Below, one piece after another: positions 4,252 to 24,336 of a stretch of DNA of 32,000 nt. The translations under genes and the position numbers were made by a program. The notes under the pieces are model-generated. The model was not told the DNA's origin. It searched no databases and saw only the letters and a list, made by a program, of their open reading frames with translations. Position 1 is the stretch's first letter. Each line of letters opens with the position of its first letter. Origin of the DNA: Nitrosococcus oceani ATCC 19707 (GTDB taxonomy: Bacteria > Pseudomonadota > Gammaproteobacteria > Nitrosococcales > Nitrosococcaceae); assembly GCF_000012805.1 (NCBI RefSeq), contig NC_007484.1, positions 2,430,001 through 2,462,000 of the forward strand, written 5' to 3'.

Positions 4252-6753
4252 CTACAGAGTATAAGCCGGGATTTTTTCCAGTTTCCAAATATCAGCATTA
4301 TATTCCTCGATGGTGCGATCAGCAGAAAACTTACCGCTTGCAGCAGTGTTGAGAATACTCATACGAGTCCAACGTTCTTGATCGCGATAAGCTTCCGCAA
4401 CCCGGCGCTGACTATCGATATAGCTCCGAAAGTCGGCAACTGTCATCCATGGATCCTGCGGGCTACGCAGTGAATTCAGAATAGGATTGAAGATCCCTGG
4501 CTCAAACTGATTGAAATGACCGCATTCAAGCAAATGCATCACCCGTTGTAGCTCTTCATCACCAGCAATAACCCCATTAGGATTATAGTGCTGGCGTGCC
4601 GCTTCCACCTCTTCAGCCGTTAGTCCAAATAAGAAGAAATTTTTATCACCCACCTCCTCACGAATCTCGATATTAGCACCATCTAGCGTACCAATAGTAA
4701 TGGCACCATTCATCATGAATTTCATGTTACCGGTACCAGACGCTTCCTTACCAGCGGTAGAGATTTGCTCTGAAAGATCGGCTCCAGGGCAAATAATTTC
4801 CATTATTGAAACCCCATAGTTAGGCATAAAGAAGATTTTGAGGGCACCATCCGTTTTCGGGTCATTATTGACTACATTTGCAACATTATTAATTAATTTA
4901 ATAATTAATTTTGCCATCCAGTAACCAGGGGCTGCCTTTCCACTGATCAGCATGTAACGAGGAACCCAGTTTTCCATGTCCCCTCGCTTGATCCGATCAT
5001 AGAGATGAATGATATGCAGGATATTCAACAACTGTCGCTTATATTCATGAATACGTTTTACTTGCACATCAAATAAAAAATGAGCGCTGGCTTGAATACC
5101 CTGTTGGACCTGAAGAGCGAGCAGCCGTTTCTTGTTTTCATGTTTGATGCTATGCCATCGAGCACAGAACTCTGGATTTTCCGCATAGAGAGAGAGCCGG
5201 CGAAGTTGACTTAAATCAGTAATCCATTCCTCTCCAATGGTCTCAGTAATTAAACCTGCTAAATCAGGATTGCATTTCGCCAACCAGCGTCGAGGAGTCA
5301 CCCCATTAGTCTTATTATTAAATTTATGCGGCCAAAGTTGATAAAAATCATAAAATAATCCGTGCTTAAGTAAATGGGTATGCAAGGCAGCAACCCCATT
5401 GACCGAGAAGCTGGCAACGATGGCAAGATGGGCCATACGCACCTGCGGGTTCTCTCCTTCCTCTATAATAGACATCCGCGCCTGCAACGCAGTATCTCCC
5501 GGCCAACAACGCGCAACCTCAGTTAAGAAACGAGCATTGATTTCATAAATAATTTCTAAAAGGCGTGGCAACAGAGAGCCAAACATACTCACTGGCCATT
5601 TCTCCAGAGCTTCCGGCAGCAGCGTATGATTAGTATAGGCTACGGTGCGACTTGTAATTTCCCAGGCGTCGTCCCACCCTAGTCCATGCCCATCCATTAG
5701 CAATCGCATCAATTCCGGCACCATGCAAGTAGGATGGGTATCATTAAGCTGGAAGCAGTTTTTCTCTGCAAATTGGCTAAAATCCTCGCCACGACGCCGC
5801 ACCCAATCGCGCAGAATATCCTGTAAACTTGCTGAAGCCAGAAAATACTGCTGGCGCAGACGGGTTTCCTTACCGAGCTCCATCGCATCGTTAGGATAGA
5901 GTACCATGGTAATATTTTCGGCGGCATTTTTTGCTGCGACGGATTCTGGATATCTTCCAGCATTAAATTCTCCTAGATCGAAAACATCAGTCGCCTCAGC
6001 TTTCCATAACCGTAAGGTATTGACCGTATCATTACGATATCCCGGAATAGGAATATCGTAGGGCACCGCAAGTACATCATGGGTGTCGACCCAACACATG
6101 CGCCAGCCTCCGCAGCCATCATCCATATATTCAGTATGGCCACCATATTTGACTCTTTGCGTATATTCCGGTCTTTCTAACTCCCAGGGGTTCCCATCCC
6201 GAAGCCAGCGGTCGGGCTCTTCTACCTGATACCCATTGTCAAATTCTTGCCGGAACATGCCGTACTCATAACGCAAGCCGTATCCCATAACGGGAAGCTG
6301 CAAAGTTGCGCAGCTGTCCAGAAAGCAAGCAGCCAAACGTCCCAAGCCTCCATTGCCCAAACCGGCATCATGCTCTAACTCTGCCAATCCCTCCAAATTT
6401 AAGCCATACTCCTGCAAAGCAGCGCTCAACTCATCCTCAAGCTCTAAGTTAAGCGTGGCATTGCTCAGGGAGCGTCCTAACAGATATTCCATGGAGAAAT
6501 AATATACCCAAGGACAGCGGCTCTCATCATAAGCGCGCTTAGTATTTTTCCAACGTTCCATCAATCGATCACGAACGGTGAGCACCAGCGCAAAATACAA
6601 ATAATGCTTCGATACGCAGCTTTCGTCACGCCCCAGAAAGCGGCCGAAATAGCCCTTGTAATCTTCGGCTAAACTCTTCCTGTCCATCCCCAGCGGCGGC
6701 AACCCTATGAGCTTGGATAGGGATATCGTGTTATAAAGGTACCGTTTTGACAT
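4252..6753 (-). CDS. glgP: glycogen/maltodextrin phosphorylase
   Basis: 833-aa ORF with the phosphorylase PLP-lysine motif EASGTGNMKFMMNGA. The family-typical regions (RLAACFLDS, LPEALE) are also present. Confidence 0.93.
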   Translation of the reverse strand: MSKRYLYNTISLSKLIGLPPLGMDRKSLAEDYKGYFGRFLGRDESCVSKHYLYFALVLTVRDRLMERWKNTKRAYDESRCPWVYYFSMEYLLGRSLSNATLNLELEDELSAALQEYGLNLEGLAELEHDAGLGNGGLGRLAACFLDSCATLQLPVMGYGLRYEYGMFRQEFDNGYQVEEPDRWLRDGNPWELERPEYTQRVKYGGHTEYMDDGCGGWRMCWVDTHDVLAVPYDIPIPGYRNDTVNTLRLWKAEATDVFDLGEFNAGRYPESVAAKNAAENITMVLYPNDAMELGKETRLRQQYFLASASLQDILRDWVRRRGEDFSQFAEKNCFQLNDTHPTCMVPELMRLLMDGHGLGWDDAWEITSRTVAYTNHTLLPEALEKWPVSMFGSLLPRLLEIIYEINARFLTEVARCWPGDTALQARMSIIEEGENPQVRMAHLAIVASFSVNGVAALHTHLLKHGLFYDFYQLWPHKFNNKTNGVTPRRWLAKCNPDLAGLITETIGEEWITDLSQLRRLSLYAENPEFCARWHSIKHENKKRLLALQVQQGIQASAHFLFDVQVKRIHEYKRQLLNILHIIHLYDRIKRGDMENWVPRYMLISGKAAPGYWMAKLIIKLINNVANVVNNDPKTDGALKIFFMPNYGVSIMEIICPGADLSEQISTAGKEASGTGNMKFMMNGAITIGTLDGANIEIREEVGDKNFFLFGLTAEEVEAARQHYNPNGVIAGDEELQRVMHLLECGHFNQFEPGIFNPILNSLRSPQDPWMTVADFRSYIDSQRRVAEAYRDQERWTRMSILNTAASGKFSADRTIEEYNADIWKLEKIPAYTL

Positions 6754-6899: not shown

Positions 6900-8987
6900 T
6901 TATTCGTTTCCAATTGCCTTTACACTCAAACGGACTCGGCCTTGTTTATCTACTTCTAAAACCTTAACACGAATGACATCACCTTCGGATAACTTATCGC
7001 TCACGTTCTTTACCCGCTCGGCTGAAATCTGCGAGATATGGAGCAAGCCGTCTTTGCCAGGCAGGATGGTGACAAAGGCTCCAAAATCCATCAGCCGGGA
7101 GACCCGCCCTTCATAGATTTTACCCACTTCCACATCAGAAACGATCTCTTCCACCCGGCGCTTAGCTTCTTGACCATCCGCCTTATCTGCGGAAAAAATC
7201 TTCACCGTTCCATCATCCACAATATCAATCGTAGTACCCGTTTCCTCGGTAAGCGCCCGAATGGTTGCGCCCCCTTTACCAATTACATCACGAATTTTTT
7301 CTGGATTAATTTTGAACACAATCATGCGTGGAGCATATTCGGACATCTCTTGACGTGGGGTAGAAATAATCTCATTCATTTTCTGGAGGATATAAAAACG
7401 GCCTTCACGCGCCTGGGACAGAGCTGTCCGCATGATTTCCTCGGTAATACCGTCAATTTTAATGTCCATCTGCAAGGCCGTGATTCCTTTCTCTGTACCC
7501 GCTACCTTAAAATCCATATCACCAAGATGATCCTCATCGCCGAGGATATCACTCAAAACAGCGAAGCGATCCTTCTCCTTGATGAGTCCCATGGCAATGC
7601 CCGCAACCGGCGCCTTAATAGGAACCCCCGCATCCATTAGGGAAAGGCTGGTGCCACACACTGTTGCCATGGAGCTAGAACCGTTAGATTCGGTAATCTC
7701 AGAAACCACCCGAATGACATAGGGGAAACTTTCCTCATCCGGAACCACTCCATTCAAACTGCGCTTAGCTAGGCGGCCGTGGCCGATTTCCCGGCGCTTA
7801 GGAGAACCAACGAAACCCGTTTCTCCGACACAATAGGGAGGGAAGTTATAGTGCAGCATAAAACGCTCCCGGCGCTCCCCTTCAATAGCATCAATCACTT
7901 GAGCATCACGTTCAGTGCCCAAAGTTGTTGCCACCAAGGATTGAGTCTCGCCGCGGGTGAAGAGAGCTGAACCATGAGTCCGAGGTAACAGTCCAGTGGA
8001 AATATTAATAGGCCGAATAGCCGTAGCATCACGGCCATCGATACGTTCCCCTCCAGATAGAATCTGCTCACGCACTAAGCGCTTTTCCAAAGCGCCAATG
8101 GCCTCTAGCACCTGCTCTCGACTCCACCGAGAATTCTCCTCGGGTACCAGGCTTTCAACAATGGAATTCCGTAATTCCGCCAAGCTAGCCTGCCGCTCTT
8201 GTTTCGAACGTATCTGATAGGCTTCTTGCGCGCGGGCCTCTCCAACTTCCTGGACAGCCGATTTCAAATCTTCTTCTTCAATGGGAGGTTTCCAATCCCA
8301 AGCAGGTTTTCCAGCTTCCTCCGCTAGTTCTCGAATAGCCTGGATTACCACTTGCATTTCTTGGTGAGCAAACATGACGGATCCCAGCATGATTTCCTCA
8401 GGCAGTTCTTGAGCCTCGGACTCAACCATCAACACCGCCTTTTCCGTTCCCGCAACTACCAAATCAAGCGCTGATTTTTCCATCTGGCCCAGCGTTGGAT
8501 TGAGCACATACTGGCCGTCAATATAGCCGACCCGGGCTGCCGCAATGGGCGTAGTAAAAGGGATTCCAGAAAGCGCCAAGGCGGCGGAAGCACCAATGAG
8601 GGAAGGAATATCAGGATCATTTTCACTATCTGAGGAGATAACCGTTGCAATTACTTGCACCTCATTAATGAAATTTTTAGGGAATAAGGGCCTCAGTGGA
8701 CGATCAATTAGCCGGGAAGTCAGCGTTTCCTTTTCAGTGGGCCTTCCTTCACGCTTAAAAAAACCTCCTGGAATTTTACCAGCAGCATAGGTTCTTTCCT
8801 GATAATTGACTGTCAATGGAAAAAAATCACGCCCCTCAGCCGCTTCTTTCATTCCCACTACCGTCACCAACACAACTGTTTCACCATAGCGGACAACAAC
8901 AGCTCCGCTAGCCTGGCGCGCAATACAACCGGTCTCAAGAACTAAGGAGCGATCACCGTACTCGATTACCTTTTTAATGGGGGTCAC
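6900..8987 (-). CDS. pnp: polyribonucleotide nucleotidyltransferase (PNPase)
   Basis: 695 aa containing two RNase PH domains, KH ([10 protein letters not shown]) and S1 ([18 protein letters not shown]). GTG start at 8987 has AAGGAA upstream. The gene lies downstream of rpsO, as in the canonical operon. Confidence 0.95.
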
Positions 8988-10864: not shown

Positions 10865-13402
10865 TTATAAAGCGGGCTCTTTTCTTACTCTTTCATAAAC
10901 TTCAATCTGGTCCCCCACTTTAACGTCCTTATAATCCTTGACGCCAATACCACATTCGGTGCCTGCCCGAACCTCCTGGACATCATCTTTAAAGCGACGC
11001 AAGGATTCTAGCTGGCCTTCAAAAACGACAATGTTATCGCGCAGTACACGGATAGGATTATTGCGACGCACGCTACCCTCAATCACCAAGCAGCCCGCAA
11101 TAGCTCCCAGCTTAGGTGAGCGAAATACGTCATCTACCCGGGCCAAGCCAATGATTTCTTCCCGGTACTCAGGGTCTAGTATACCGATTAAAGCCCCTTT
11201 TATTTCATCAATAGCATTATAGATTACACTATAATAGTGTAAATCAATCCCTTTTTCAGCAATCAGACGGCGTGCCGCCGCATCCGCTCGAACGTTAAAA
11301 CCGATAATCACGGCGTTAGAAGCAACCGCTAAATTAACATCTGTCTCATTAATACCCCCGACACCCGCAGCGACAACCTTAACCCTCGCCTTATCAGTAG
11401 AAAGTTTAGTCAAGGAATCGGAAAGAGCTTCAGCGGATCCTTGCACATCGGCCTTAATTACGAGATTAAGCGCTCTAATTTCTCCTTCTTCCATCTCATT
11501 GAACATATTCTCAAGCTTGGCAGACTGCTGCCGCGCCAGCTTAACTTCCCGTTCTTTAGCTTGACGATGCCCAGCAATTTCCCGCGCTCTACGCTCATCC
11601 GGCACCACCACCGCCTCATCGCCCGCATTGGGTGTCCCCGACAAACCTAGAATTTCTACCGGTGTTGATGGTCCCGCTTCTATTATCTCTTGACCTCTTT
11701 CGGTAAGCATGGCCCGAACCCGACCGGTTTCCACCCCACTGAGAAGAATGTCGCCCTTACGTAAAGTACCACTTTGCACTAATATTGTAGCTACCGGACC
11801 GCGCCCCTTATCCAACCGGGATTCGATAACAACACCGCGAGCAGGCCCTTCAGCAGATACCTTAATCTCCATTACTTCAGCCTGAAGCAAGATAGCTTCA
11901 ATTAGATCATCAATTCCCTCCCCAGTCTTAGCTGAGACATTGACAAACTGAGTATCCCCTCCCCACTCCTCGGTAATCACATCGTGATTAGCAAGCTCTT
12001 GCTTGACCCTATCTGGATCGGCATCAGGACGGTCAATCTTATTAACCGCCACAACAAGTGGCGCGCCTGCTGCACGAGCATGCTGAATAGCTTCCACAGT
12101 CTGTGGCATAGCGCCATCATCTGCGGCAACCACCAAAATAACAATATCGGTGACTTTAGCCCCCCGTGCGCGCATCGCAGTAAAAGCTGCATGGCCTGGA
12201 GTATCAATAAAAGTAATCTCACCTTTATCCGAACGCACCTTATAGGCGCCAATATGTTGGGTAATGCCTCCTGCCTCAGACGTGGCAACCTTAGCTCGCC
12301 GGATATAATCGAGCAGCGAGGTTTTGCCATGATCCACATGGCCCATAATAGTAACCACTGCAGCCCGTGAAACCTGCCTACTTACTTCCTGTTCAGCTTG
12401 GACCAACTCTAACTCAAGCGTATTTTCTTGTAAGCGCTTAGGCTTATGACCCATTTCCTCCACGACGATGGTCGCCGTATCTTGATCTAAAACCTGATTG
12501 ATAGTTGCCATAATACCCAATTTCATTAGCGCTTTAATCACTTCAGCCGCCTTCACCGACATTTTTTGAGCTAACTCGGCAACAGTCATCGTCTCGGGAA
12601 TAGAGACATCATGCACGATAGGCGCCGTTGGTCTTTCGAATCCATGCTTAGCTGCGGGTGCCGCTTTTTGGGGCCGAAATTTTTTACGTTTACTGGTACC
12701 GGCCTTGCCAGGAGCTATGTGTAACTCTTTGCGGCCAAACTTAGTTCCCCGTTGTTTTTGCTCAGATTCCCTATCCTCGGAGCGAAACCGAGGTTTCGCC
12801 TTCCGGCTAGCAGGCTTTTCCGTTCTAGCTGGTTCCAACCCGTTCTTTGGTTTTTTTTCCACATCAAGACGGCGCTTAACCTGAGCTTCGGCCTGGCGCT
12901 TGGCTTCCTCCTCAGCGGCCTGGCGCTTGGCTTCCTCCTCAGCGGCCTGGCGCTTGGCTTCCTCCTCAGCGGCCTGGCGCTTGGCTTCCTCCTCCGCTAT
13001 AAGCCGCGCTTCCCGTTCTTGTTGCGCCTGAACTCCTGCCTGCGCCTCTTCTTCCTCTCGCTGGCGTTCCGCTAAACGCTCTTGCTCTAGTATCGCGCTG
13101 CGCTTAATGTAGGTACGCTTTTTACGCACTTCAACATTGACTGTCTTAGAACGCCCTCCCCCCGCATTCACTTGAATCTCGCTATGACTCCGACGATTTA
13201 GAGTAATTCTTTTAGGCGTTGCAATCTCTACGCTAGCGCCATGGCTATGCCTCAAGTACCTCAACAGCTGCAACTTTTGCGCTTCTGTAATCGCCGCATC
13301 CTCCCGGTCGACCCCAATGCCCGCTTCGCGTAGCTGCTCAAGCAAGCGACCGACAGGAGTGCCGACCACATCGGCTAGCTGCCGTACGGTTACCTCACTC
13401 AT
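10865..13402 (-). CDS. infB: translation initiation factor IF-2
   Basis: 845 aa with the GTPase motifs [17 protein letters not shown] and NKID. The ATG overlaps the nusA stop (ATGA at 13399..13402). Confidence 0.96.
12890..12997 (-). repeat. 4 x 27-bp in-frame tandem repeat inside infB
   Basis: The plus-strand unit ggcctggcgcttggcttcctcctcagc occurs four times head to tail; the last copy ends ..ctccgc. It encodes (AEEEAKRQA)x4 in the IF-2 N-terminal region. Confidence 0.95.
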
Positions 13403-15709: not shown

Positions 15710-16030
15710 TTTGGGGTTTCACCATGACTAATTTCAATTTTGTTCCTACAAAATCTTATCAGCCTGGAGAATTCGCGCTTCAATGGGTGCCTTGGGCTGG
15801 CCATGACTTAGCGCGCAAGGCCCTCAGTTTGGTATCACCCTCCACGCGCATTACTTTCCTTCCTACTGAGGGTAGGTCGCGCTTGTGGCAACGGGAAAAT
15901 CATAGCGCGAATTCATGGCAAAACGCAAGTAACCTGGCCCTCGCGCTCGACGCGCCGTTGCACTTTTCGCCTGTCTGCAGCAGACAGGCGGACACGCACA
16001 GGCAGGCAACCTCGCTAGGGGGTCATTAAA
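15710..16030 (+). repeat. modular leader repeat, long form (copy A); carries the listed 101-codon ORF 15724..16029
   Basis: The 5' 40 nt (15710..15749) match rc(22803..22842) at 34/40, and every mismatch is a transition. The 3' module has a 19/19 identity (15990..16008 vs rc 22772..22790), a shared cctgtctgc and a similar G-run tail. Confidence 0.75.
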
Positions 16031-16048
16031 CATCCATGCTTAATTCCA

Positions 16049-16933
16049 ATGAAAACATCTGTTGAACAGCTCATTAAACAAACATCAGAACTCCTGGAAC
16101 GCCTTGAAAATTTGCTGCCGGCTCAGGCACCAGAGCCCGAGTGGGAGCGCTCGGTTGCCTTCCGCTGGCGCCGCATCCACCCACGGGATCCTGGCCACTT
16201 AGAAGCGGTTCCCCATACCCATAACATTCAATTGAACGAACTCCGTGGTATTGAAACGCAAAAGCGGCAAATCGTTCAGAACACCACTCAATTCCTCTCT
16301 GGCTTACCAGCTAACAACATCCTTCTCTGGGGCGCCCGCGGCACCGGCAAATCCTCGCTGATTAAAGCATTGCTCAATGCCTTCTCCAGCCAAGGCCTGC
16401 GTCTTATCGAGGTCGATCGGCACGAATTGCTAAACCTGCCTGATATTGTCGCGCTTACTTCCCATCGCCCGGAACGCTTTATTCTATTCTGCGATGACCT
16501 CTCTTTTGATGCTAACGATCCTAGTTATAGAGCACTTAAGGTCGTACTCGATGGTTCCGTTAGCGCCACACCAGAAAATGTCCTAGTCTATGCTACCTCT
16601 AACCGCCGCCACTTATTGCCCGAGTACATGGAAGAAAACCAACAAAGCCAGTTAGTAAAAGGGGAAATTCATCCCAGCGAAGCGACGGAGGAAAAAATCG
16701 CGCTTTCTGATCGATTTGGTCTCTGGTTATCCTTCTACCCTTTTGATCAGCAAAGCTATATCGAGATCGTCAGAGCCTGGCTCGATTATTATGGCGTCAC
16801 TCCTGAACTAAGGGAACAGGCCACCGAGGCTGCCCTCCAATGGGCTTTGCTGAGAGGCTCCCGTAGTGGCCGTACCGCATGGCAATTTGCTCGTGATTTC
16901 GCCGGCCGTCACAAATTCAGCAATGCTCCTTAA
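16049..16933 (+). CDS. DUF815-type AAA/P-loop ATPase
   Basis: 294 aa with Walker A GARGTGKSSLIKA and Walker B-like ILFCDDLSF. Length and pattern fit the DUF815 ATP-binding family. Confidence 0.8.
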   Translation: MKTSVEQLIKQTSELLERLENLLPAQAPEPEWERSVAFRWRRIHPRDPGHLEAVPHTHNIQLNELRGIETQKRQIVQNTTQFLSGLPANNILLWGARGTGKSSLIKALLNAFSSQGLRLIEVDRHELLNLPDIVALTSHRPERFILFCDDLSFDANDPSYRALKVVLDGSVSATPENVLVYATSNRRHLLPEYMEENQQSQLVKGEIHPSEATEEKIALSDRFGLWLSFYPFDQQSYIEIVRAWLDYYGVTPELREQATEAALQWALLRGSRSGRTAWQFARDFAGRHKFSNAP

Positions 16934-22513: not shown

Positions 22514-22750
22514 GGGTTCTCCTCTAGAAAATAATGGTTATTACGAATTTGGGTCAGGCTAGCAGTATCCCAGCAGAACGGATAATGAGTGGCCACTTAC
22601 TCGTCCCCTCTTAAAATACCGGAGAGTCGCTTCGGTGAAAAAACAGTTTAATTCCCCTGCCTCAAAAATTATCCTGCTCTCTACCTGGTAACAAGGCTCA
22701 ATAGTCTACCGAGGATGGTGAGAAATACCAAGTTAGCCCCAGCTCCTCAC

Positions 22751-22842
22751 TCAAATGCCCCCCAGTGAGAGTGCCTGCCTGTGCGTGTCCACACGCAGAC
22801 AGGTAGGAATAAAATCGAAATCAGTCATGGCGGAACTCCAAA
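22751..22842 (-). repeat. modular leader repeat, short form (copy B); contains a 25-codon mini-ORF 22751..22828
   Basis: The minus strand reads tttGGAGttccgccATGactgatttcgattttattcctacctgtctgcgtgtggacacgcacaggcaggcactctcactggggggcattTGA. It is homologous to both ends of copy A and encodes MTDFDFIPTCLRVDTHRQALSLGGI. Confidence 0.75.
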
Positions 22843-22879
22843 TATAATAGCGTGGCCTCAATCCCAGAGTTCAGAACAA

Positions 22880-22908
22880 GGCGGAAAAAGCCGCCTGCTT
22901 TTTCCGCC
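22880..22908. other. strong 11-bp-stem hairpin in the ORF-free gap
   Basis: ggcggaaaaag-ccgcctg-ctttttccgcc forms a perfect 11-bp stem. The loop sequence ccgcct can alternatively pair with aggcgg at 22879..22884. Confidence 0.6.
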
Positions 22909-23465
22909 TTGACTTACAAATCCCCCTACCAACTACGCCCGACTGAAATCGGAAGCTTATAACTCTATACCCCCAGTCCTTAAGTTAAGATCAACCCATG
23001 CCATTATTGGTCATCATAAGTGGCTCCGCTGATATAACCGCTAACCCGTTGGGCTAATTGACCCATCTGTGTAGGAGGTTGTTATTGCACGACAGCCCCA
23101 TTGTATTAGCGTTAGCCTGGTAACCAAGTTGCTTTTCGATGTGGCTGGTCGCTCGCAGACAGCCTAAAAGTGACAGTATTTTTTGCGCAAACTGTTTGCC
23201 GCGATAGGGCGTCTCAGGACAATTTTATTTTGCCAAATACCCAACAATTGCGCTTCCTTCTCTGATTTTACCTGGAAGAAGCGCCGGCAGAAATCTGCAA
23301 AACTTTTTGCGAGGTGTCTCCTGGGCCAGAAAAACGGCTAATTATTTCTATCCCGCAATCGTTGAATGCCTGGCCAATGCATGTAATGCTTGGCGTGTAC
23401 GCAAAGGTAGCCATGTGTAGCCTAGGGAGAGGCGATTCTTGAATTCAGCAGATAGAGGATATTCG

Positions 23466-24236
23466 ATGAACAAACTTTCCAAGGTCACCGAGGCGGTGCG
23501 CTGCCATGCAAATGGAGCCTGGCTTCTGGCTCTTTTGACTGGTGCGCCGGGCAGCCTAGGGGCGGCACTGATAACACCCACCGATCTGGACGGGCTAGCG
23601 CTCGGTGCAATGATCGCCGGGCCGGTTGGACCCGAAGTTGAGACGACCTTTGTCGATACCACAGGCAACGGCATTGGCGATCTGAGTAGCAGCGTATCCT
23701 GTCCGTCGGGTTTTGCATCCTGTGTCCCGTCGACCAATCCGCCGGGCGCCCTCTATACCTATCAACACGCGATCACTCCCGGGATCGACTTGCCTAACGA
23801 TCCACCGTTTCCCTCCCCCAGTACAGTCCTCGCCTTCGACGGCGCTGATCGATTCAGCCTGGGATTTCCCGCAGCTGGATTTGTCGGTATCGCCGGCTAC
23901 AGCTTCTCCGATGCCGATTCGGTGCTGGTAGCAGGGACAAGTATTATAATTGAATATCTGCCCGACAATCGCTTAGAGTGGCGGTTGAGCCCGGGTGCTG
24001 GTTGGGATACTGGCGAGACTATCCGCTTCTTCTGGCAGACCACCCAGCCGCCAAGTGGCCCGGGAGGCCAATACACCTTAGGCTCAACCATGACCGGCAC
24101 CGCAGCCGGCCCGCAGCCAATCCCGATCGCTACCGTCCCCTCGCCCGCGACTTTCGGGTTACTAGCAAGCGGACTATTGGGTATGTTCGGTATTTATTGG
24201 AGAGCACCGAAACCTATAAAGCGCACGGAGCGGTAA
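23466..24236 (+). CDS. secreted protein with PEP-CTERM-like sorting signal
   Basis: The ATG at 23466 is preceded by AGAGGA; the listed TTG at 23439 is less likely. The N-terminus is signal-like (AWLLALLTGAPGSLGAA). The C-terminus reads VPSPATFGLLASGLLGMFGIYWRAPKPIKRTER, i.e. P-x-P, a hydrophobic helix and a basic tail. Confidence 0.7.
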   Translation: MNKLSKVTEAVRCHANGAWLLALLTGAPGSLGAALITPTDLDGLALGAMIAGPVGPEVETTFVDTTGNGIGDLSSSVSCPSGFASCVPSTNPPGALYTYQHAITPGIDLPNDPPFPSPSTVLAFDGADRFSLGFPAAGFVGIAGYSFSDADSVLVAGTSIIIEYLPDNRLEWRLSPGAGWDTGETIRFFWQTTQPPSGPGGQYTLGSTMTGTAAGPQPIPIATVPSPATFGLLASGLLGMFGIYWRAPKPIKRTER

Positions 24237-24336
24237 AAACCCTCAGGGTTGCAATCTAACTAATCGCTACGCAAATTTGCTGGGCTGACAAGGGGCGAGG
24301 TTGCACCTATCCGCAATCAATTATGACGAACGCCAA

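Follow-up and report, generated by a model that had tools for sequence, protein, structure and literature searches.

The window, a stretch of 32,000 nucleotides from Nitrosococcus oceani ATCC 19707, contains two related intergenic sequences, here called copies A and B. Copy A lies between tRNA-Met and the DUF815 gene of the DUF815–dapCDE block, and copy B lies in the interval between a P-type ATPase gene and an aminotransferase gene; each is co-directional with the gene that follows it. The homology reported in the earlier note was reproduced. The 5′ module of A (15710–15749, opening with tttggggtttcaccATGactaa) and the reverse complement of the corresponding module of B (22842–22803) are identical at 34 of 40 positions, and all six differences are transitions. 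In both copies, cctgtctgc is followed by GGACACGCACAGGCAGGCA and a similar tail. This exact 19-mer was found at 15990–16008 on the plus strand and at 22790–22772 on the minus strand, which are the only two sites in the window, and in none of 100 shuffles. The blastn E-values for the two shared modules were 5e-7 and 6e-6. The perfect palindrome gcctgtctgc-a-gcagacaggc was also present in copy A at 15969–15989, and the stop codon of the 101-aa ORF in this copy was confirmed to lie 19 nt ahead of an ATG at 16049. The reading frame of A is kept in B as MTDFDFIPTCLRVDTHRQALSLGGI followed by a stop. The 3′ limit of copy A lies further out than previously placed. Homology among copies reaches ...TTCCAA at 16049, so the element touches the DUF815 start codon. 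The features of both copies are listed in Table 1.

Table 1. Features of copies A and B in window coordinates. RE, right end; LE, left end; IS, insertion sequence.
Feature	Position	Strand	Description or basis
Copy A	15711–16049	−	~340 bp; very probably a full-length non-autonomous derivative of a tnpB-only IS; nhmmer five-copy profile, E 7e-108
Copy A ends	RE 15711; LE with TTGGA motif 16049	tnpB-sense = minus	Ten-copy alignment
"Young-type" RE module	15711–15894	−	Polymorphic between N. oceani strains
Putative TnpB guide-RNA (omega/reRNA) scaffold	15711–15870	−	Stops at the RE boundary, ...GAAACCCCAA
101-aa ORF	15724–16029	+	Antisense to the tnpB remnants; no Pfam match
RAGATH-18-like core (GUGGAG ... 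UGAAGC around two stems)	15772–15848	−	Rfam RF03064
tnpB C-terminal codon remnant	15823–15873	−	Similar to ...TVGRTGSDARGGVHKPE; tblastn of L004 TnpB residues 406–422
LE remnant including first tnpB codons	15895–16044	−	Old part common with N. watsonii and N. wardiae; homology to IS LE
GC hairpin module in LE remnant	15969–16009		Palindrome 15969–15989 plus the 19-mer
TTGGA (plus strand TCCAA)	16045–16049	−	LE outer-edge motif, candidate target-adjacent motif; TTGRA in 10 of 12 copies or ISs
Copy B	22753–22841	+ (tnpB-sense)	Probable mini-derivative: RE-terminal 40 nt, GC hairpin and LE fragment
Copy B, LE fragment	22753–22771		~20 nt
Copy B, GC hairpin	22774–22803
Copy B, RE	22802–22841		40 nt

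The two copies belong to a larger family. Fetched loci and contigs are designated here by L numbers, with a letter suffix for a copy within a locus. In a protein search, the 101-aa ORF matched 14 "hypothetical proteins" and nothing else; all belong to N. oceani, N. watsonii, or N. halophilus, and no homologue was found outside Nitrosococcus among 5.8 billion proteins. These relatives show 51–91% identity and have the first ~80 residues in common, whereas their C-termini are unrelated and run into the flanking DNA. At least 11 distinct variants of the ORF occur in N. oceani. An nhmmer profile of the DNA around the ORF relatives revealed additional, uncalled copies in the flanks (e.g., L003 5285–5772 and L004 18092–18409). 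Ten long copies from the fetched loci were aligned, and partial copies were located in addition. The alignment of the long copies defines a basic unit of ~320 bp, extending from TTGGAGTTTCGCCATGACTGA... to ...ATCCATG(N6-7)YTCCAA. The density of the flanking copies, about one per 25–30 kb, suggests dozens or more per genome. In addition, three Logan contigs (L013–L015), whose position 1 corresponds to window position ~15921, all end inside copy A at 128 nt upstream of the DUF815 ATG; breaks of independent short-read assemblies at such a place are the expected signature of a multi-copy repeat. None of the 275 pattern matches to the ORF alignment in a public genome collection was confirmed, and the only four matches there to a degenerate 21-mer from the 5′ module were chance ones in unrelated MAGs, the collection evidently being without searchable Nitrosococcus genomes. 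Metagenome scans with exact patterns gave no matches.

One of the uncalled copies, L003 5285–5772 on the minus strand, has its interior replaced by a 50-aa ribbon–helix–helix-like ORF (5400–5552; weak Pfam matches to RHH_5 and DUF6364), upstream of which lies the palindrome TGTTACcataaattgaatGTAACA. This ORF may be a passenger gene within the element.

The earlier note had offered three readings of the element: a cis-regulatory leader RNA, a leader peptide, or an ERIC/MITE-like repeat. The orientation and integrity of the copies bear on the first two. A leader RNA or attenuator that precedes operons in the sense direction and includes a leader peptide accords with the position of copies A and B, with the short distance from the ORF stop to the DUF815 ATG, and with the sense orientation to the next gene of 7 of the 10 copies examined (A, B, L003b, L004b, L017, L018, and L019). 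The other three (L001a, L003a, and L004a) are antisense to both neighbors. Each has a 3′ gene end on one side (those of an epimerase gene, rplS, and a PEP-utilizer fragment) and the 5′ end of the following gene on the other; even L018 sits between two co-directional genes. The sense orientation noted for the leaders thus holds for A and B but not as a rule. Likewise, the DUF815 start indeed has no SD, but this is not special to copy A, as the start of the N. wardiae orthologue also lacks one and lies 95 nt from the element. The ORF is disrupted by frameshifts, premature stops, or a missing start in L004b, L017, L016, and L011A, and both the conserved structure and its G-U asymmetry (see below) favor the minus strand. 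Rfam at gathering thresholds returned tRNA only, with no cis-regulatory match in the window. A cis-regulatory leader is accordingly highly improbable, and the placement of the copies ahead of operons is incidental.

It is just as improbable that the ORF represents a genuine family of ~100-aa small proteins, as annotated in the GenBank records, with B as a mini-paralogue. In its favor, the copies conserve the ATG and the ~80 codons at the start, B retains the frame, and six of the ten long copies in the alignment have it open, a proportion that counts against an accidental frame; however, the copies that came from the protein search were selected for open frames. Purifying selection and a frame intact in all copies would be required of such a family. 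Instead, the variable sites (23/26/34 of 81 per codon position) show no significant skew, four copies carry the disruptions described above, the C-termini enter unrelated flanks, and neither a Pfam match nor a homologue beyond the genus was found in the searches above. The same absence of a codon-position signal and the same broken frames speak against the leader peptide. The ORF is an accidental open frame antisense to the functional strand.

The origin of the repeat became apparent from locus L004. This locus contains a gene for a 427-aa TnpB (11276–12559; Pfam OrfB_IS605), situated between diverged homologues of both repeat ends. The homologue of the 3′ part of the repeat stops 7 nt short of the tnpB ATG, and that of the 5′ part takes in the final 70 nt of tnpB and continues for 85 nt past the gene. 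A second tnpB at an unrelated locus (L020, 3001–4284), encoding a TnpB with 85% amino acid identity to the first, shows the same arrangement, except that the 3′ part of the repeat enters the ORF. The outer ends of both elements, CGTTGAAGGA... and ...GCAAACTCCAA, are identical, and the flanks beyond them are unrelated; these shared boundaries at two unrelated loci with diverging flanks therefore mark the ends of a tnpB-only IS of ~1.46 kb. The 3′ ends of the two ISs are nearly identical (99% over 201 nt) although their TnpBs differ more. In the repeat profile, positions 197–308 match 110 nt up to or into the tnpB start (LE and first codons), and positions 3–169 match the tnpB 3′ end (last codons) and RE. 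The LE of L001a is 86% identical to the IS LE. In a tblastn search, residues 406–422 of the L004 TnpB matched the same place on the reverse strand in seven long copies (six of the young type and copy A), each single match being weak (E 0.003–0.27).

The outer boundaries of the repeat are thus those of the tnpB IS, and the homology of both ends indicates that the repeat is an internally deleted, MITE/PATE-like tnpB element. The first ~10–15 and the last ~23 codons of tnpB are kept, and the gene is deleted from about codon 10–15 to about codon 400. No functional transposase or nuclease gene is present in the repeat copies, as expected of a gene-less derivative, and the multi-copy dispersal in varied contexts and orientations is as expected of a non-autonomous element of the IS200/IS605 superfamily. 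An alternative is that an independent repeat is the favored insertion target of the tnpB IS, so that the apparent IS ends are the halves of an interrupted repeat. IS200/IS605 elements do insert at specific motifs, and repeat halves do flank tnpB in L004 and L020. Nevertheless, a separate IS left end would have nowhere to lie, as the repeat-like LE approaches the tnpB ATG to within 7 nt in L004 and enters the ORF in L020; the repeat-homologous DNA takes in the last 23 tnpB codons; the two ISs at unrelated loci share exactly the outer boundaries of the repeat; and the right-end part has the guide-RNA-like structure expected of a tnpB element. We consider the insertion-target explanation very unlikely, if marginally less so than the two readings discussed above. 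Of the three original readings, the ERIC/MITE-like repeat is the one borne out, and the match of both ends to an IS terminus is what the earlier note had named as fatal to a regulatory role.

We conclude that copies A and B are very probably Nitrosococcus-specific non-autonomous transposable elements of the MITE/PATE type, presumably mobile and with ends placed to within ~7 nt, derived from a tnpB-only IS of the IS200/IS605 superfamily. The TnpB protein scores above the cut-off of the NCBIfam guided_TnpB model. Its score with IS200_TnpB is 355 bits (equivalog cut-off 425) and with IS607_TnpB 177 bits (cut-off 350). An IS607-type element was considered and rejected on the basis of the latter score and because a serine-recombinase tnpA was not seen next to either IS. 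Among solved structures, ISDra2 TnpB (8H1J/8BF8; E 1e-70) is the nearest relative. No transposase gene is linked to the IS in L004 or L020, and no tnpA is adjacent to either.

The target motif of ISDra2 is TTGAT. By likeness to it, the TTGRA sequence at the LE edge of the repeat is a candidate target or TAM motif. In copy A, the last base of this motif is the A of the DUF815 start codon. Flanking direct repeats were not seen in the aligned copies. A 6-bp subterminal hairpin occurs ~25 nt from the RE end, as GCTTGT/ACAAGC in the IS and TTTTGT/ACAAAA in the repeat. The LE hairpins are imperfect, and the energies of the subterminal DNA hairpins are no different from those of shuffles. Y1 TnpA genes were found in an IS605 in L001 and as a fragment in L017, the ends of which are unrelated to the repeat; the L001 IS605 was therefore dismissed as the parent.

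The L001 IS605 (~7040–8700) encodes Y1 TnpA and a 373-aa TnpB and has the end hairpins CTGCCTGCTTTAGCTGGCAG and CCGTCTGCTTTAGCTGACGG. A solo hairpin at L020 1494–1532 is nearly identical to these end hairpins, and its arms loosely resemble the nested GC hairpin of the repeat.

In TnpB elements, the guide RNA (omega RNA or reRNA) is encoded over the tnpB 3′ end and RE, and the guide is taken from the flank (PMC10055086, PMC11061315). The part of the repeat whose homologue in L004 and L020 consists of the final 70 nt of tnpB with 85 nt of RE lies at this expected location, in tnpB sense, and was examined on the minus strand. In copy A, it contains a match to RAGATH-18 (RF03064) that covers the whole model (positions 1–71 of 71; E 5e-5) and scores 34.6 bits, which falls short of the 44.9-bit gathering score. 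The reRNAs of IS607-type TnpBs have RAGATH-18 as their core, and in them ~60–64 nt of conserved 3′ flank precede the guide (PMC11061315). The distance from the core to the element end in copy A is 60 nt. No RAGATH-18 match was found in the IS right end, nor in the other repeat copies in a larger search. Because of the score below the gathering threshold, the absence of a match in the IS RE, and the closer fit of TnpB to the IS200/IS605 model, we do not class the core as a member of RAGATH-18.

A minus-strand alignment was made of seven young copies including A, two old copies (N. halophilus and N. wardiae), and the IS right end. The RNAalifold consensus comprises 31 pairs, 10 of which have changes on both sides, compared with 3.5 ± 1.4 in shuffles (0 of 500 reached this number), a difference that draws on only ~3 independent lineages and on a structure predicted from the same alignment. 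Consensus pairing holds in 94.7% of cells, and in 32–40% in slid controls. The minus-strand consensus has 39 G-U cells, so the opposite strand, which carries the ORF, pairs worse (84.5%). The fold of the copy A minus strand alone is not more stable than those of shuffles (z −1.07). The conserved structure, with its compensatory changes, is thus on the strand opposite to that of a sense-oriented leader RNA. As expected for a tnpB derivative, the predicted minus-strand RNA resembles a TnpB guide-RNA scaffold; by analogy with characterized elements, the putative guide of copy A would derive from the flank below 15711.

The putative scaffold shares features with two known TnpB systems. As in ISDra2 (IS200/IS605), the closest solved natural TnpB, the guide RNA would be encoded over the tnpB 3′ end and RE, and TTGRA resembles its target motif. 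The Nitrosococcus parent ISs differ from ISDra2 in lacking tnpA, in their IS200_TnpB score of 355 against the cut-off of 425, and in the RNA core, which is RAGATH-18-like rather than the ISDra2 scaffold. The full-length 71-nt match, the k-turn-like GUGGAG/UGAAGC boxes, and the distance of ~60 nt from the motif to the element end, at which the guide starts, resemble instead the IS607 TnpB reRNAs (Ren et al. 2024, PMC11061315; RF03064). In contrast to the IS607 cases, the motif scores 34.6 against 44.9 bits, the 177-bit IS607_TnpB score is lower than the IS200/IS605 score, and no serine-recombinase tnpA was seen. Furthermore, 97.8% of the RAGATH-18 reRNA cases are from Firmicutes (PMC11061315), whereas Nitrosococcus belongs to Proteobacteria.

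The sequence gcctgtctgc...caggcaggc, which contributes to the match between A and B, is outside the basic unit. It is an optional GC hairpin insertion of 19–41 nt that is not present in most copies. In A, L011A, and L003b it lies close to the 3′ tail, and in L017 of N. watsonii directly after the 5′ module; other forms of the GC hairpin occur in L019 and L017. The hairpin at 15969–16009 is missing from the orthologous copy A loci of N. watsonii and N. wardiae and, being confined to N. oceani, entered copy A later. The switch-like geometry that had been proposed for the palindrome does not survive this distribution. In the perfect palindrome, the GTGC of the usual hairpin is replaced by AGCAGACAGGC, which looks like a templated quasi-palindrome correction. 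The DNA hairpin of copy B has a z-score of −2.96. A genome-wide REP-like family was also considered for the GC hairpin but is not supported; within ~200 kb the hairpin was found only inside repeat copies. The only two similar hairpins outside copies are both in L020, and one of them (1853–1880) looks like an ordinary terminator.

In N. wardiae and N. watsonii, a diverged copy occupies the same site as copy A, with tRNA-Met on one side and DUF815 on the other. Judging from these sequences, copy A is an old insertion that probably predates the separation of N. oceani, N. watsonii, and N. wardiae. The LE edge adjoins the DUF815 ATG in N. oceani and N. watsonii, with 95 nt between them in N. wardiae. 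The window is 100% identical to N. oceani GCA_007990675.1, whereas two other N. oceani sequences (L011 and L012) have at this site an old-type module with 48 extra nt in place of the young-type RE module. The megablast alignment of the window with L011 and L012 breaks exactly at 15710/15895, in DNA that is otherwise ~99% identical, and the left break is the element end. This exchange of part of copy A between strains ~99% identical indicates that the family was recently active or recombining. One reading is that a young copy inserted beside the old copy A and that the two then recombined.

Copy B is present in N. oceani strains and absent from the matching place in N. watsonii and N. wardiae, which is rearranged or within a larger indel; N. 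watsonii homology resumes at 22743 beside copy B. No clean empty site was found for the repeat, including for copy B in the rearranged regions of these two species. The LE junction of copy B coincides with the A-type hairpin position and its RE junction with the L017-type position. The match of the junctions to two hairpin positions gives the appearance of recombination between the hairpin modules of a doubly marked copy, and copy B may have arisen in this way, a candidate parent not having been found among the copies. Copy B has neither the RAGATH-like RNA core nor the LE terminus and is therefore dead.

The interval from the P-type ATPase to the aminotransferase (window ~22745–24300) is ~1.4 kb longer in N. 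oceani than in N. watsonii. The extra DNA, with copy B at its edge, holds a 265-aa ORF (23439–24236) that has no Pfam match.

Here, we propose how the family may have arisen and persisted. A ~1.46-kb tnpB-only IS would have lost nearly the whole of tnpB, leaving the ~320-bp element with LE, the terminal codons, and RE. Copies would then have spread by a transposase acting in trans, and the genome does have Y1 TnpA genes. Where the scaffold is intact, copies may be transcribed into guide RNAs, the guide being the DNA that flanks the right end. With these guides, resident TnpB nucleases could act in trans and cleave sites from which the element has been lost, and recombination would restore the element. 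Copy A presumably came to adjoin the DUF815 start in the oceani/watsonii lineage, acquired the GC hairpin afterward, and received the young-type RE module last, in this strain. Copy B would be an inactive remnant that lost everything between the two hairpin insertion points.

A more far-reaching version may be sketched as speculation, and we think it rather unlikely. The family would consist of dozens of orphan guide-RNA genes with guides set by their flanks and serviced in trans by a few intact TnpBs. The ~28–31-nt GC hairpin (AC..AC in L017 and GC..GC in A) would be a second, tiny mobile palindrome that drives deletions such as that in copy B, and the RE swap in copy A would be the footprint of TnpB-stimulated recombination.

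Pneumococcal BOX and enterobacterial ERIC sequences are dispersed, intergenic repeats that occur in either orientation, are modular, and have long and short forms. The Nitrosococcus repeat shares these traits. To our knowledge, the BOX and ERIC families have no demonstrated parent IS, whereas both ends of the Nitrosococcus repeat map onto a tnpB IS. A closer counterpart is provided by PATEs, gene-less elements whose omega RNAs, often still encoded, are served by TnpB in trans (Meers et al., PMC10055086). Like the Nitrosococcus repeat, the PATE-like elements of Geobacillus stearothermophilus are gene-less, keep the LE and RE of tnpB ISs, and coexist in many copies with tnpB-only ISs; an omega RNA gene is often retained, and the elements depend on TnpA and TnpB in trans (PMC10055086). 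The Nitrosococcus repeat differs from them in lineage and sequence, in its 5′ and 3′ codon remnants of tnpB, in the nested optional GC hairpins, and in that a cognate TnpA was not identified. No description of the family was found in the literature on Nitrosococcus repeats, MITEs, and insertion sequences, the original genome paper lying outside that search. Gene-less tnpB IS derivatives that keep omega-RNA genes have already been described (PMC10055086), and the Nitrosococcus family is new within that kind.

The assignment has consequences for annotation and for the study of TnpB. About a dozen "hypothetical proteins" of Nitrosococcus should be re-annotated as repeat, and the leader-RNA reading is removed. 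In N. oceani and N. watsonii, all of the sequence ahead of the DUF815–dapCDE start codon is now contributed by an old copy. Gene-less elements that keep a putative guide-RNA scaffold beside several intact tnpB genes offer a test case for the use of guides in trans and for the homing of non-coding elements.

Several further observations were made at the loci studied. On the minus strand of L004 (7425–7654), a sub-threshold Rfam match to HEARO, an IscB-associated omega RNA, scored 38 bits (gathering score 83) and may be a remnant of another RNA-guided-nuclease element. On the minus strand of L020 (3034–3111), antisense to the tnpB 5′ part, a SymR-antitoxin-like Rfam match reached 39 bits against a gathering score of 61; this sub-threshold match is probably due to chance. 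In the window itself, 54-nt tandem repeats were found inside the IF2 gene (12889–12994, within infB, 10865–13402, minus strand), and the length of IF2 differs between strains and species (845, 863, 883, and 884 aa).
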